Below, piece by piece: positions 10,407-15,624 of a stretch of DNA of 64,000 nt. The translations under genes and the position numbers were made by a program. The notes below the pieces were generated by a model. That model had not been told where the DNA came from, ran no database searches, and worked only from the letters and a program-made list of their open reading frames with translations. The stretch is from assembly GCF_988243305.1 (NCBI RefSeq), contig NZ_OZ547136.1, one strand, 5' to 3'. Numbering within the stretch: position 1 is the first letter of the stretch; each line of letters opens with the position of its first letter.

Positions 10407-11390
10407 TTACCTTCCCGCTCTCCAGGCCACATCCCGCAGCGCCGATCGCGCAGCCTCACTGATACCACCTAACTGAAAAAATCCGTGGATAACGCCAAGG
10501 TAGCGTTGGCAGGTGCATTGCACTCCTTGCCCTGTCATGCGGTGATACAACGCTTCACCTTCATCGCAAAGTGGGTCGTATTCAGCGGTAATGATATGTA
10601 CAGGTGGCAAGCCATTGAAATCATCGCGCCAAAGAGGGCTGGCTTCAGGATGCCTGCGTTCAATGCCTGGCAGATACATCTCAAAGCCGCTCAGTAAAGT
10701 GTCGCGTGTGATGATGTAATCGTGACCATTGCGTATGTAGCTTTCGAAATGCGCAGTCGCATCAAGCATGGGATAAATTAAGATGAGTTGTGCCGGTTGC
10801 CACTCGCCAGCACGCTTTAATCGCAAAGCAGTTACCAGCGCCAGATGTCCGCCCGCACTGTCACCGGCAAGAGTTATCCGTTGTTTATCAACGCCGAGTC
10901 GTTCGGCGTGTTGCCAGACTAATTCTGCACCTCGTTGTGCATCATCATGGGCGGCGGGGAAAGTCTGTTCCGGTGCCAGCCGATACTGGACGGCAATAAC
11001 CCGACATTGCCCGTAATAGGCTAACTGGCGCAGCTGGTTGTCGTGAGTTGCGAACCCGCCGCTAACAAAACAGCCACCGTAGTAATAAATTATCGTCGGG
11101 AGTAATGTCGGGGCATTCAGCGGTGACACTATTCGTAAGATCATCCCTTCAAGTTCGATAGTCTGAATATCTACCCGCGTTTCTGTCTCACCCGCAAGGA
11201 CAGCGCTGGCGATATAGCCCTCCCTGCGCTGCGCAATACTTTGTTGACGCGATGAGGGGCGACCCGCAGCGATAAACTCTTCGACTAACTCTGCAATTCC
11301 TTTTTCCAGTGCCATAGTAGAACTCATTTTGCTGTATGAATGTACAGTTTTATACACCCGTTTTTGCTGGATGGATACAGGGAAATTCAC
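10407..11390 (-). CDS. Alpha/beta-hydrolase fold-3 esterase/lipase (Aes-like)
   Basis: YGGCFVSGG oxyanion region and GDSAGG nucleophile-elbow motif; 327 aa. Confidence 0.8.
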   Translation of the reverse strand: MNFPVSIQQKRVYKTVHSYSKMSSTMALEKGIAELVEEFIAAGRPSSRQQSIAQRREGYIASAVLAGETETRVDIQTIELEGMILRIVSPLNAPTLLPTIIYYYGGCFVSGGFATHDNQLRQLAYYGQCRVIAVQYRLAPEQTFPAAHDDAQRGAELVWQHAERLGVDKQRITLAGDSAGGHLALVTALRLKRAGEWQPAQLILIYPMLDATAHFESYIRNGHDYIITRDTLLSGFEMYLPGIERRHPEASPLWRDDFNGLPPVHIITAEYDPLCDEGEALYHRMTGQGVQCTCQRYLGVIHGFFQLGGISEAARSALRDVAWRAGR

Positions 11391-11412
11391 GGGCGTGAAA
11401 AATCTGGAAAGC

Positions 11413-11435
11413 GCCTCGCAAATGTAAAGACAAAC
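11413..11435 (+). promoter_or_regulatory. Shared upstream motif (TGGAAAGCGCCTCGCAAA) copy 1, upstream of higB-like gene
   Basis: Motif recurs at ~13086-13109 and ~13525-13548 upstream of yiiE and yiiF. Confidence 0.4.
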
Positions 11436-11543
11436 CCGGCAGAGACGTGGTTTTGCTGGAGCACTATCAGTAAGCTAGTGGTTTCAAGGGTGCGTCAATG
11501 ACGTACAAAAAGGATTGTTACTCTAAGCCAATGGCGTATAATT

Positions 11544-11855
11544 ATGCTCTTCATCGAAACGGAAATTTTTACTGAAGATGTTCAAAAACTGCTGACCGAC
11601 GATGAATTCAGTCGTTTTCAGTTTTTCCTGGCCTTGAATCCTGACTATGGTGAGGTAATACCTGAAACTGGTGGGTTAAGAAAGGTTCGATGGGTGTCAG
11701 GAGGAAAGGGGAAACGTGCTGGTGTCAGGGTTATTTACTTTCATCAGGTTAAACATTATGAGATCAGATTACTGCTTATTTATCGTAAGGGTATTAAAGA
11801 TGATCTGTCTCCCCAGGAAAAAGCAATGCTCCGGTTGTTAAATACGAGGTGGTAA
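11544..11855 (+). CDS. RelE/HigB-family type II toxin
   Basis: 103-aa ORF; toxin-first gene order; stop of toxin abuts start of downstream HTH gene. Confidence 0.65.
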   Translation: MLFIETEIFTEDVQKLLTDDEFSRFQFFLALNPDYGEVIPETGGLRKVRWVSGGKGKRAGVRVIYFHQVKHYEIRLLLIYRKGIKDDLSPQEKAMLRLLNTRW

Positions 11856-12146
11856 ATGGATAAGGCACTTTTTGAGCGGTTGACTCACAGCATGGCCCAG
11901 ATGAATGAAATTATTGAAGGAACGCGACACCCTTCACGGACTTTTGAAGTTGATGCTATGAAAATCAAAGAAATACGCCGCGCTTCAGGGTTGTCACAAT
12001 CTAAATTTGCCGAACTTATTTCCGTAAGCGTAGACACGTTGCGTAACTGGGAGCAGGGGCGACGTTCACCGACTGGGCCTGCAAAGGCTTTGCTGCGAGC
12101 GATTGCCAATGATCCGCAACATGTGCTGCAGGCACTTAACCGTTAG
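11856..12146 (+). CDS. HigA-like XRE-family HTH antitoxin
   Basis: 96-aa ORF with HTH (SQSKFAELISVSVDTLRNWEQGRR); immediately follows toxin. Confidence 0.65.
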   Translation: MDKALFERLTHSMAQMNEIIEGTRHPSRTFEVDAMKIKEIRRASGLSQSKFAELISVSVDTLRNWEQGRRSPTGPAKALLRAIANDPQHVLQALNR

Positions 12147-12222
12147 AGGCATGGTTATGCCATACAGAAAGCACCAGCATTCAGAACTCCTATGAAAGCG
12201 GCATAGTGCCGCCTGCTCAGGA
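12146..12222. repeat. ~80-bp repeat copy B (degenerate hairpin)
   Basis: Direct repeat of 10328-10406 (gccatacagaaagcaccagcattcagaactcct.tgaaagcggcatagtgccgc). Confidence 0.7.
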
Positions 12223-12230
12223 GTTTTACT

Positions 12231-12443
12231 ATGACCCGTAATCGTGCTGAACGTCGCCATCATATGGCGCGATTAAAAAAAATCCGCTGCCGTTATCGCA
12301 CTGCAGGCGATGGAAGCAAAAAAGCATCAGGTATTTGCTTTCGTACTCCCTGTATTTGTTCTTGTTGGATGTGTGGGCATCGACGCTATCATAATGGTCC
12401 CCGCGTATCGGAAATTCGAGCAAAAGCACGCTATGCGAATTAA
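12231..12443 (+). CDS. Hypothetical small basic Cys-rich protein (70 aa)
   Basis: ATG with SD (caggag) contributed by repeat copy B; no recognisable family. Confidence 0.3.
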   Translation: MTRNRAERRHHMARLKKIRCRYRTAGDGSKKASGICFRTPCICSCWMCGHRRYHNGPRVSEIRAKARYAN

Positions 12444-12504
12444 GGGAAAATGATGAACTATTTTAAGGAAGCACATTTTTAGAACTCTTAACAGGAGACT
12501 AAAA

Positions 12505-12783
12505 ATGTCCACGCTTAATACGCGTAAAGATAGGGATCGTAATGGTAAAGCGAAGCTGCATAATCATTCAGGGATCCCAACACTTACAGGTAAATGGCGT
12601 CACCCTTCAATGGATTGTTGGGTAAACTACAGTACACCGGGCGATCATGAATGGAAGCGGCTCTATACTACGCTTCGCCGTCGCGCAGATGATCGACGCC
12701 AATGTCATCGGGTAATGCAGGGGGATGATCCAGAAGGAATCGTCTGGTTCCCGGACTGTTATCCACAAATTTACTACTACTAA
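12505..12783 (+). CDS. Hypothetical protein (92 aa)
   Basis: ATG preceded by AGGAGA at optimal spacing; no recognisable family. Confidence 0.35.
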   Translation: MSTLNTRKDRDRNGKAKLHNHSGIPTLTGKWRHPSMDCWVNYSTPGDHEWKRLYTTLRRRADDRRQCHRVMQGDDPEGIVWFPDCYPQIYYY

Positions 12784-13201
12784 CAATTAAAGACCGGTTG
12801 GTGCGGCACTGACCGGTCAGTTATGAATGGTAGATTTCACCTTAAACCCTGGTGCGGTAAAGCTGCTGACTTTTTCGGGTACACCATCCTGATGAAGCAA
12901 ATGAACACCCAATCAAAAAAATATTCTTGAATATAAAATATTTATAGCACCCATAATTCATCCTTATTATTTATTGTTTCTTTTCTGTAGATGTGTCCCC
13001 GCTTAATTAAAAGTAATAAACCATCCTGGGTTATTACTAAACCATTTTTGAGTAACAATTGAAATAACTGCAACTGTTACATTATCTTTGGATGCCGTCT
13101 CGCAAAAACAAAACAGCATGCAAAAATCCGCTTTTTTTAAATGATTTTTCGGCGTAATTTTCGCACATACATTAATGAGTAATATATGTAAGGTGGTGGT
13201 A

Positions 13202-13420
13202 ATGGCGATGAATACGGTTTTTCTTCATTTATCAGAAGAGGCAATTAAACGGCTGAACAAGCTTAGGGGCTGGCGTAAGGTTTCACGATCTGCAATTTTA
13301 CGCGAAGCGGTAGAGCAATATCTGGAACGTCAGAAATTCCCGGTGCGTAAAGCAAAGGGAGGCAGGCAAAAGGGGGAGGTAGTTGGTGTTGATGATCAGT
13401 GTAAGAAGCATAAGGAATGA
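13202..13420 (+). CDS. yiiE: CopG/ribbon-helix-helix family protein YiiE
   Basis: 72-aa product from MAMNTVF; RHH-like N-terminus; synteny. Confidence 0.75.
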   Translation: MAMNTVFLHLSEEAIKRLNKLRGWRKVSRSAILREAVEQYLERQKFPVRKAKGGRQKGEVVGVDDQCKKHKE

Positions 13421-13662
13421 CAAAAATTTTTCATTCTTGAATATAAAAAAACAGATGCCCTTATTCTGGTATTAATACAAGGCTGTTTTACTTGAACTTA
13501 TAATAACTGCAACTGTTACATCATATCTGGAAAACGCCTCGCAAAAATAAAAAATGATGCGTAAATGAGCTTTCTTTAAAGATTCGGCAAGGGTACTTTT
13601 CTCTCCATAGATTCAAAAATGATATTGGCGAGATATTTATGAACTCTCTGGCAGGTATAGAT

Positions 13663-13881
13663 ATGGGCAGAATTTTACTCGATTTATCGAATGAGTTGTT
13701 TAAGCAACTTGATGATCTCGAGGTGCAGCGTAATCTTCCTCGTGCGGAGCTATTACGGGAAGCGGTAGATCAATACCTGGTAAATCAATCGCAAACAGCA
13801 AGAGCCAGTGCTTTTGGCATCTGGCAAGGGAGTGAGGAAGATGGTGTCGAATACCAGCGTAAGCTGCGCGAGGAATGGTAA
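13663..13881 (+). CDS. yiiF: CopG/ribbon-helix-helix family protein YiiF
   Basis: 72-aa product from MGRILLD; paralogous to yiiE including upstream region. Confidence 0.75.
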
Positions 13882-14062
13882 TGGCAAAAAGATTTGGCTA
13901 TTTGATATCGATATTGTTATCGATTTGTTCAGTGTGAAAATTGAGGCAAAACAGGCACTGGCAGCATAGCTTGAGGTGGTAACGCGGAATAAGAGAGATG
14001 GTGTCGTCACACCCTATGAACTGTAATCCGGGCGACCTGCGCCACCCGGAAAACGTCAGAGA

Positions 14063-14992
14063 TTACTCCCCTTCACCCGGGAACAGGAACGGGTTGATGG
14101 AACTGCGGGCGTAGCCTTCTTGCTCCATTCGCGCGTCCAGTACCAGAGAGGCGAGGTCATCTGCCACGGCTTCAACTTTCGGTTCTTTTTCCTGATAAAG
14201 AATCTTCAGGTAAGTGCCGCAGTCATCGCAGCTTTCGGCTTTAATCGCGGCCTGTTCGTCATCCAGCGACCAGTAATGCAGTTTGCCGCTCTGTTCACAG
14301 TTGCTGCATTTTACGCGCACCACGTGCCATTCGGTTTCACACAGGTTGCAGTGCAGGTAACGCAGCCCCTGAGTGGTGCCAATTTGCACCATGCTGGACA
14401 CCGGCATAGAGCCACATACCGGGCAATATTGACGTTGTTCGCCGTATTCAGCGCGGGCTTTGCCGGGGATCAGATTAGCCATCTGCGCCCAGTAGAGCGA
14501 CAGCGCAGCCCAGATAAACGGCGCTTTATCGCTACTGACGGATGAGAAATCAGAGGCAAACAGTGCGCTGGCCATATCTTCCAGCTCCTGGGTCGATGCC
14601 TTCTCCAGATTCTCAATCACTGCCAGCGCCGGGCCGCTCATTTCAGGTTTCAGCTCAGCAATCAGCGCCATCAGCAGCTTTTGCCAGTGCTTATCACGCG
14701 GCAGAACGTGAATATCCAGCGGGGGCTTGCCCTGTGCGCTGGCTTCTTTAATGCGTGCAGTCAGATCCATCTCCAGCGGATGGTCGTACAGCACCACTTC
14801 CTGGGCGTGGGCGATAAGCGCAGCAAAGCGCAGGTAATCACCCAGCGGATTATTTTCTGCCAGCTCGCGCAGACGCTCGGCGCGGCGGTTGTATAAATTC
14901 TTGAGCCGAGGGAACAATAACGGCGGAATCATATCCGCCGTACGTTTCTCGCTCGAACCCAGCTCATCTTGCGGGATTATGCGAATACTCAT
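14063..14992 (-). CDS. fdhE: Formate dehydrogenase accessory protein FdhE
   Basis: 309 aa with multiple CxxC pairs; synteny with fdoGHI. Confidence 0.9.
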
Positions 14993-15624
14993 TCAGCTTT
15001 CTTTTCCGTTGTCTTGCGGACCTCACGGTACCAGCGCGGGTGATGTTTCTTCGCCCAGGCGCTGGTAACCCATCCTTCCACCATGGCGGTAATAGTGCCT
15101 TTCACCCAAAGGGCGGCGTAGATATGCACCATGATAACCACAATTAACGCCACTGCGGCAAATGAATGCAGCATTAACGCGAATCGGATCACCGGGATTG
15201 AGAAAGCAGGCGCAAAATAAGGACGCCAGATAATCACGCCGCTCACCAGCAGCAGAACCAGGAAAATAATCGCCGCCCAGAAAACGCATTTCTGACCGAA
15301 GTTATAACGCCCGGTGTCACCTACTTCCTCGTTGACGACGATCTTACGAATATTCTTCGCCCAAAAGATATCATCCCGATTGATTAGGTTGTGATGCCAG
15401 TAACGGAAAAACATGATGATGAACGAGGCAAACATAACCACGCCGACAAACGGGTGCAGAATTCGCGCCAGCTGCGGTGTGCCCATGATTTGCATCAACC
15501 AGTTGAAGGACGGGAACAAAAAGCCCAGCCCGCTCACCGCCGCCAGGATGAAGCAGAAGGCGGTGATCCAGTGGTTGATACGTTCCGGCGCGGTGTAGCG
15601 CACGATGGTGTCACGTCGTTTCAT
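14989..15624 (-). CDS. fdoI: Formate dehydrogenase-O cytochrome b556 subunit
   Basis: 211-aa hydrophobic ORF; overlaps fdhE start and fdoH stop. Confidence 0.9.

Follow-up and report, generated by a model that had tools for sequence, protein, structure and literature searches.

Probable CRP-S sites upstream of a higB-like toxin operon, yiiE and yiiF in Escherichia coli

The 64,000-nt stretch of contig NZ_OZ547136.1 (RefSeq assembly GCF_988243305.1) considered here, hereafter the window, is Escherichia coli sequence that is 100% identical to strain C4 and contains three copies of an 18-nt bipartite motif, each located upstream of a small gene of the toxin-antitoxin (TA) or antitoxin-like type. 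The genes in this part of the window are arranged in the order fabY, an open reading frame (ORF) of 617 aa, an alpha/beta-hydrolase gene on the minus strand, a higB-like toxin gene, nadS/higA, two small ORFs, yiiE, yiiF and fdhE. Those closest to the motif copies are the following:

10407-11315, minus strand: alpha/beta-hydrolase gene, start codon at 11315
11544-11855, plus strand: higB-like toxin gene, RelE superfamily, an ORF of 103 aa with its ATG at 11544
11856-12146, plus strand: nadS/higA-type helix-turn-helix (HTH) antitoxin gene, 96 aa (Pfam HTH_3, E = 3.9e-10; annotated as NadS family protein)
13202-13420, plus strand: yiiE, encoding a CopG-type ribbon-helix-helix (RHH) protein (Pfam RHH_1, E = 1.2e-11; annotation)
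13639-13881, plus strand: yiiF, encoding an RHH protein of the VapB antitoxin type (weak Pfam RHH match)
13880-13969, plus strand: remnant of vapC (PIN toxin), approximately its first 30 codons (BLASTP against the N-terminus of Citrobacter VapC, 13/21 identical, E = 4e-7)

The product of the higB-like gene gives a weak Pfam RelE match (E = 0.0045, under the curated cut-off) and carries the RefSeq label hypothetical. The motif copies, numbered below as predicted CRP-S sites, are located as follows:

11402-11423, plus strand: site 1, upstream of the higB-like gene, 22 bp, ATC TGGAA AGCGCC TCGCA AAT; exact TGGAA-N6-TCGCA, centre at 11412.5
13086-13107, plus strand: site 2, upstream of yiiE, CTT TGGAT GCCGTC TCGCA AAA; homologous to the exact K-12 yiiE site
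13525-13546, plus strand: site 3, upstream of yiiF, ATC TGGAA AACGCC TCGCA AAA; exact TGGAA-N6-TCGCA

All three copies are present within a few bases of the positions (∼11413, ∼13086 and ∼13525) that had been given for them in a first-pass annotation made from the letters. The 18-mer of site 1, TGGAAAGCGCCTCGCAAA (11405-11422), lies 139 nt upstream of the higB-like gene, that of site 2, TGGATGCCGTCTCGCAAA (13089-13106; four differences), 113 nt upstream of yiiE, and that of site 3, TGGAAAACGCCTCGCAAA (13528-13545), 111 nt upstream of yiiF; copies 1 and 3 agree at 24 of 27 positions. The exact bipartite core TGGAA-N6-TCGCA occurs twice in the window versus 0.21 times expected, as does the 18-mer when up to three mismatches are allowed (2 found, 0.21 expected), whereas cores with one mismatch are found at chance level (6 found, 5.76 expected). 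The yiiE copy, a degenerate allele in which the distal half-site reads ATCCA in place of TTCCA on the other strand, is therefore credible in the window strain only because it is homologous to the exact yiiE copy of K-12. A further one-mismatch core within the yiiF coding sequence (TGGTA AATCAA TCGCA AA, 13778-13793) is probably meaningless, given the chance frequency of such cores in the window.

The half-site TCGCAAAA pointed to the CRP-S class of sites, the asymmetric, Sxy-dependent CRP sites of Enterobacteriaceae. The E. coli CRP-S motif has been given as 5′-T4G5C6G7A8-6N-T15T16C17C18A19-3′ (Sondberg et al., 2019, citing Sinha et al., 2009; PMC6728893) and is asymmetric and orientation-independent, with both half-sites being needed (PMC6728893). 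The reverse complement of sites 1 and 3, TTT-TGCGA-GGCG(C/T)T-TTCCA-GA, is an exact CRP-S consensus, and site 2 departs from it by one mismatch (ATCCA). Enterobacterial CRP-S half-sites without C6 always have G6 (Cameron and Redfield, 2006; PMC1635313), and this arrangement is found at all three sites, where the TGCGA half has C6 and the TGGA(A/T) half has G6. The motif is thus probably a CRP-S site, for which Class-I-type activation by cyclic AMP (cAMP)-CRP and Sxy is predicted.

Comparison with validated sites was made by scanning the relevant MG1655 promoters for the core. The K-12 sxy promoter contains CGGAA AGAGCC TCGCA AA, 144 nt before the ATG, which matches site 1 at 14 of 16 positions, and the conserved half is promoter-proximal in the sxy promoter and at the window sites alike. 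The ppdD site (TGCGA GGCGTT ACGAA), which has been validated by electrophoretic mobility shift assay (PMC1635313), has the same proximal half and spacer as the yiiF site and the exact K-12 yiiE site, and shares the 13-mer TTTGCGAGGCGTT with the reverse strand of site 3. In MG1655, sbmC and chpS have TGCGA-N6-TCGCA and chpS also has TGGAA AGCGGC TCGGA, while K-12 prlF is preceded by TGGAA CGTCCC TCGCA, 141 nt before the ATG. The exact 18-mer was also found in the sulA-sxy spacer of Pantoea latae, 139 nt before sxy, and thus represents the orthologue of the validated E. coli sxy site. The distances between site and start codon in the window (111-139 nt) compare with 144 nt for E. coli sxy and 139 nt for Pantoea sxy.

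Comparison of E. coli strains shows constant pentamers beside a variable spacer. The K-12 yiiE copy is an exact TGGAAAACGCCTCGCAAA, with the core TGGAA AACGCC TCGCA, and among K-12-type alleles the pentamers at yiiE are constant while the spacer reads AACGCC, AACGTC or AACACC. Site 3 is identical in K-12 and in all compared strains having the yiiF upstream region, and the half-sites of the higB-like site are the same in a divergent E. coli strain in which the spacer differs (AGCAAC versus AGCGCC). A changed distal pentamer was seen only in the window-type yiiE allele, which is common to strain FDAARGOS_1300. Fixed pentamers flanking a drifting spacer argue for a bipartite protein-recognition site.

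The regions upstream of yiiE and yiiF had been regarded as paralogous in the first-pass annotation, and this view is borne out by a 79-nt block at 80% identity, by a common 16-mer, ATTCTTGAATATAAAA, and by an alignment that extends to the start codons. The YiiE and YiiF proteins are 38% identical, and yiiE and yiiF are tandem paralogues, promoters included. The same annotation had reported an identical 19-mer, ATAACTGCAACTGTTACAT, upstream of both genes:

13064-13082, plus strand: 19-mer upstream of yiiE, an allele of some strains, with the imperfect inverted repeat TGCAAC-T-GTTACA inside
13503-13521, plus strand: 19-mer upstream of yiiF, present in every compared strain having the yiiF upstream region

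The identity holds in the window, but at yiiE it is limited to some strains. Outside the window the yiiE-upstream 19-mer was found, with one mismatch, in FDAARGOS_1300, and K-12 and five other compared strains have ACAACTGCAAC(A/G)CTCTTAT at its position. Two yiiE-upstream haplotypes can thus be distinguished, a window type with the yiiF-like 19-mer and a degenerate site (TGGAT GCCGTC), and a K-12 type without the 19-mer and with an exact site. They may have arisen through patchy recombination, or gene conversion, between these tandem genes. FDAARGOS_1300 has the window-type yiiE allele and is missing yiiF entirely.

In the genome-wide motif search that the first-pass annotation had proposed, TGGAAANCGCCTCGCAAA (17 fixed bases, one free position) was scanned against both strands of 100,044 species genomes (298 Gb); the enterobacterial count, genera and contexts given here are those among the matches listed and are lower bounds. 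The motif proved to be far above chance, with at least 54 enterobacterial occurrences of the exact 18-mer among the 120 matches listed, in approximately 20 unrelated flank contexts and in every case with A or G at the free position. Genera containing it include Escherichia, Enterobacter, Lelliottia, Leclercia, Citrobacter, Kosakonia, Phytobacter, Buttiauxella, Pantoea and others. Non-chance occurrences, among the matches listed, all belong to Enterobacteriaceae or Erwiniaceae, the clade having sxy; the other listed matches are scattered over unrelated phyla and are about as many as chance would give with 17 fixed bases in 2 × 298 Gb. Conservation between contexts is confined to the motif, ∼7 nt upstream and 1 nt downstream in an information-content profile of 23 contexts, and this profile revealed no second conserved element at a fixed distance.

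In most contexts with an identified neighbour gene the motif is co-oriented with the first gene and situated ∼100-140 nt upstream of it. TA contexts comprise yiiF-like vapB with an intact PIN vapC, Gp49-type higB with an HTH antitoxin gene, ccdAB, and prlF-yhaV, where the motif is just after garD; other contexts are yiiE, yiiF, a rhuM gene after symE, a NUDIX gene and the divergent yicR(radC)/coaBC spacer. The E. coli yicR(radC)-dfp spacer has the exact 18-mer, and radC is a member of the Haemophilus influenzae competence regulon. In ∼450 E. coli genomes a relBE cassette is located between nrdG and cybC; here the motif belongs to the inserted DNA and lies, inverted, 65 nt upstream of relB. True plasmids and phages are essentially without the motif, matches in a BLAST search with a 31-mer being essentially all to chromosomes mislabelled as plasmids.

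Several features of these other loci can be described in their own right. The E. coli nrdG-cybC spacer exists in three states: most strains have an empty spacer with its own terminator hairpin, ∼450 genomes have the relBE cassette and its CRP-S site, and an O145 strain has relB but no longer relE. Three GCATTACA repeats in the relB promoter region probably constitute the RelB operator. At several unrelated positions in Enterobacter, Lelliottia and Leclercia the 18-mer is found 220-310 nt from a gene for a ∼150-170-aa protein family, for which a Pfam search gave no significant match and which may be another gene family of the Sxy regulon. Four Escherichia yicR-dfp spacers, one of them from E. 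albertii, have the 13-mer TGAAAGCACGACA ∼15-30 nt after the CRP-S site, and the K-12 spacer has GAAGGCACGACA, one mismatch away from it. We take this 13-mer to match the core of the small RNA RyhB, possibly by coincidence, and the motif is not explained by the likeness.

Binding of cAMP-CRP to CRP-S sites is weak, and Sxy contacts CRP at Q194 and L196, with activation proceeding via activating region 1 (AR1) in a Class-I manner (PMC1635313, PMC6728893, PMC10767902). It is proposed that at the window sites cAMP-CRP would bind weakly and need the competence co-activator Sxy (TfoX), through its contact with CRP, for activation, and that CRP would in turn contact RNA polymerase in a Class-I-like fashion from roughly -60 to -90. 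One site each would serve three units, namely the toxin-first higB-like/nadS TA operon, yiiE and yiiF, each of which would have a distal Sxy-dependent promoter, P1. The following promoter elements are candidates:

11471-11476, plus strand: candidate -10 of higB-like P1, TAAGCT, a TAnnnT hexamer 66 nt after the TGGAA start
13155-13160, plus strand: candidate -10 of yiiE P1, TAATTT, 66 nt after the site start, in the conserved block GTA(A/C)TTTTC
13594-13599, plus strand: candidate -10 of yiiF P1, TACTTT, 66 nt after the site start, in the block GTA(A/C)TTTTC of the paralogous regions
11515-11542, plus strand: candidate P2 of the higB-like operon, sigma-70-like TTGTTA-16-TATAAT (promoter scan, 10/12 matches), its -10 ending 2 nt before the higB-like ATG

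A TAnnnT hexamer is thus found 66 nt after the TGGAA start at three of three window sites, and the E. coli sxy promoter has TAAGTT at 67 nt; such -10 elements would put the site centre near -70.5. Because the P2 -10 ends 2 nt before the ATG, transcripts from P2 would begin within the toxin ORF and so be devoid of its start codon. The higB-like operon would accordingly be read in two ways, from a distal CRP-S-dependent P1 to give mRNA for toxin and antitoxin and from the proximal sigma-70 P2 to give antitoxin only. The higB-like operon, yiiE and yiiF are predicted members of the Sxy/CRP-S regulon that would be induced jointly at high cAMP in the presence of Sxy. It is probable that yiiE has inputs besides CRP-Sxy, since the K-12 yiiD(fabY)-yiiE spacer is among the sites of RpoS holoenzyme identified by systematic evolution of ligands by exponential enrichment (SELEX; PMC5493296), and yiiE is up 2.5-fold on SlyA over-expression, within the H-NS-silenced gene set (PMC5797941).

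Other explanations for the motif differ in what they take it to be recognized by. RHH antitoxins commonly autoregulate, the motif precedes both RHH genes of the window, and the regions upstream of these are paralogous, all of which would fit an operator of YiiE and/or YiiF serving both autoregulation and cross-talk to the higB-like TA module. However, no internal direct or inverted repeat is present in the motif, whereas RHH operators consist of repeated or palindromic sub-sites, and its distance of 111-139 nt from the start codons places it far from the proximal promoters that TA operators normally overlap. In many genera the 18-mer is also found ahead of operons with HTH, PrlF, CcdA and RelB repressors, as well as of the non-TA genes sxy, yicR/coaBC, the NUDIX gene and rhuM. 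This explanation is consequently considered extremely improbable. Of the shared operator/promoter architecture suggested in the first-pass annotation, a genuine common cis-regulatory element is retained but not its assignment as an RHH operator; the autoregulation by YiiE and YiiF inferred there finds no support, in view of the missing symmetry and of the unrelated repressor folds and non-TA genes that the motif also precedes, and what had been considered possible cross-talk, the link between the higB-like gene, yiiE and yiiF, is best read as common cAMP-CRP and Sxy control rather than autoregulation or mutual regulation. If YiiF does autoregulate, GATATT-N5-GATATT (13621-13637), beside the yiiF start codon, would be a better operator candidate, which is speculation from the letters. 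A sigma-54 promoter was an initial idea, prompted by the -24/-12-like GG-N10-GC spacing in cTGGaaaacgccTcGCa and its flanking C/T-TGG and GCA, with ∼10 of 14 specified consensus positions matching, and it was dropped because K-12 carries the same sites and yet nothing is listed at yiiE, yiiF or the yicR-dfp spacer in the tables of sigma-54 chromatin immunoprecipitation sequencing (ChIP-seq; PMC4591121) or RpoN SELEX (PMC8743547), which do include a nearby intragenic fdoI site that is present in the window. Moreover, TGGAAA is a poor stand-in for the TGGCAC of the consensus TGGCACG-N4-TTGCW, and an upstream activator site is not conserved, leaving next to no probability for sigma-54. The fdoI site, inside the gene at 15455-15471 on the minus strand, is an exact CTGGCGCGAATTCTGCA and corresponds to the intragenic sigma-54 site IS47 of the K-12 ChIP-seq study (PMC4591121).

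Two further explanations would deny the motif a regulatory role at these genes. It could be a recombination or insertion site, or the scar of a travelling "mobile promoter," at the boundaries of small cassettes, and the copies in the window do bracket cassette-like units (higBA with two ORFs, then yiiE, then yiiF), while a single genomic position shows, in two genera, a common flanking gene end plus the motif, with different TA cassettes after them, and the nrdG-cybC relBE insertion carries the motif inside the inserted DNA. Against this, most loci are single-copy and lack a second motif copy at the other cassette end, the end-points of a K-12 deletion in this region do not coincide with the motif, true plasmids and phages essentially lack it, and it is found at the core, non-mobile promoters of sxy and yicR-dfp; half-sites that are kept while the spacer drifts speak for protein recognition rather than strand exchange. 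Such an origin is therefore rated very unlikely, and the related idea of a cassette attachment site was rejected since occupied and empty nrdG-cybC alleles put the motif inside the replaced segment and not at its junction. Alternatively, the CRP-S-like sites could be functionally inert relics at yiiE and yiiF, as remnants of decayed TA loci, or could serve neighbouring genes. A relic would suit the vapC stub after yiiF, the degenerate yiiE site of the window strain and the observation that Sxy is hardly expressed under laboratory conditions, according to the authors of PMC3330819, and service to a neighbour would suit site 1, which is equidistant from the divergent hydrolase gene. Both pentamers are nevertheless unchanged in all compared K-12-type yiiE and all yiiF alleles despite polymorphism in spacer and flanks, and a yiiF-type site with the exact 18-mer is kept before intact vapBC in three other genera, which makes this explanation unlikely. 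Several other candidates were tried and rejected: an Rfam scan of 11000-14100 with E up to 10 gave sub-threshold noise only; a small ORF or leader peptide across the motif would have an open frame at copy 1 only and no start codon at copy 3; a terminator or hairpin, in which GCGCCTC pairs with downstream sequence, is seen in few loci and is not general; and, as to a plasmid or phage origin, the 31-mer BLAST search found essentially only mislabelled chromosomes.

Several points weigh against the assignment as CRP-S sites. The yiiE site of the window, with its distal half-site mismatch and altered spacer, may be weak or inactive. Across unrelated loci, the spacer A-R-C-G-C-C shows more conservation than the "6N" of the consensus implies, which reflects either extra information beyond the published consensus or, in part, the use of the full 18-mer for searching. 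Site 1 sits in a divergent spacer, between the start codon of the hydrolase gene (11315) and the ATG of the higB-like gene (11544), and could serve the former instead of or besides the latter. The Class-I geometry is a prediction, and a test of ∼20 sites for helical phasing of -10-like hexamers gave no significant result (p ∼0.2, 10.5-bp period). In the literature covered, which did not extend to the site list of Sinha et al. (2009), no paper was found that names yiiE or yiiF with Sxy, and a literature search for the motif sequence string gave nothing relevant.

The genes surrounding the sites differ considerably between strains and genera. In Citrobacter, Superficieibacter and Enterobacter, yiiF orthologues have a PIN-domain vapC gene downstream, and intact vapBC with the same upstream site was found in Citrobacter youngae, Superficieibacter and Enterobacter. 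Because the vapC stub directly follows it, yiiF in the window is a stranded antitoxin of the VapB type whose vapC partner has decayed. K-12 is without the segment from the start of the 617-aa ORF to ∼12789; it keeps ∼39 first codons of this ORF fused near 12789, from which a ∼4.3 kb deletion in K-12 can be deduced. In the window the 617-aa ORF is single and unbroken (8385-10238), while RefSeq annotates the region in C4 as two separate features, a "hypothetical protein, incomplete" pseudogene and a "transposase." Between nadS and yiiE are two small Arg/Cys/His-rich ORFs of 70 aa (12231-12443) and 92 aa (12505-12783), neither of which gave a match in a Pfam scan; only the 92-aa ORF is annotated in C4, and the segment is missing in some strains (e.g., KV7).

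A locally puzzling repeat is thereby reassigned to a known regulon, with the prediction that yiiE, yiiF and the strain-variable higB-like/nadS module respond to cAMP-CRP and Sxy. The kind of element is known, as is Sxy control of TA loci (hicAB, chpSB, higBA, hokD and toxTA; PMC11951105), but two points appear to go beyond the accessible papers, namely the site in front of the strain-variable higB-like/nadS cassette and how broadly such sites are associated with TA loci across genera. The 18-mer or its core precedes prlF-yhaV, the relBE insertion, ccdAB, vapBC, Gp49-type higBA, higB-like/nadS, rhuM and the orphan antitoxin genes yiiE and yiiF, and finding the same site ahead of at least six unrelated TA families, spread over many genera, adds to the few cases published. 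It is conceivable, if somewhat doubtful, that CRP-S sites are a regular, portable component of type II (and some type I) TA cassettes throughout Enterobacteriaceae. Were this so, TA modules would form the largest non-competence class of the Sxy regulon, and the DNA-uptake state would set off TA modules in concert, for instance as a defence against incoming DNA or to the benefit of selfish cassettes that exploit the competence signal. Why TA modules are wired to a competence regulator becomes a question that is testable on many loci, and yTC-TGGAA-ARCGCC-TCGCA-AA can serve as an extended working consensus for annotation of the Sxy regulon.

Among characterized systems, the site in the E. coli sxy (tfoX) promoter (Jaskolska and Gerdes, 2015; PMC6728893) resembles the window sites in its proximal TGCGA and its spacer (GGCTCT in sxy versus GGCGCT in the window) and has TTCCG where the window has TTCCA; it differs in that the genes downstream in the window are TA or antitoxin-like rather than a competence activator, and their control from the window sites is predicted. 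TA loci controlled by Sxy through CRP-S sites are hicAB, which has a CRP-S site at P1, chpSB, higBA and hokD in E. coli and toxTA in H. influenzae (PMC11951105, PMC6957337). Both hicAB and toxTA have a CRP-S-dependent P1 and an antitoxin-repressed P2, for antitoxin only, that starts inside the toxin ORF (PMC6957337). The higB-like operon shares with hicAB (Turnbull and Gerdes, 2017) and toxTA a toxin-first order, an upstream CRP-S site and a strong proximal sigma-70-like promoter that would initiate inside the toxin ORF, but pairs a RelE/HigB-like toxin with an HTH protein, NadS, in place of HicA and HicB, and its P1, P2 and regulation are predicted; the K-12 region upstream of hicA contains no exact TGCGA-N6-TTCCA. 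Canonical CRP-N sites (TGTGA-N6-TCACA) are likewise 22 bp long with two pentamers 6 bp apart and are bound by the same protein, but have T6 in both halves as opposed to the C6 and G6 of the CRP-S motif, and the TTCCA half in the window is non-palindromic and the spacer G+C-rich. In contrast to CRP-N sites, CRP-S sites have low affinity and need Sxy (PMC1635313; PMC6728893).

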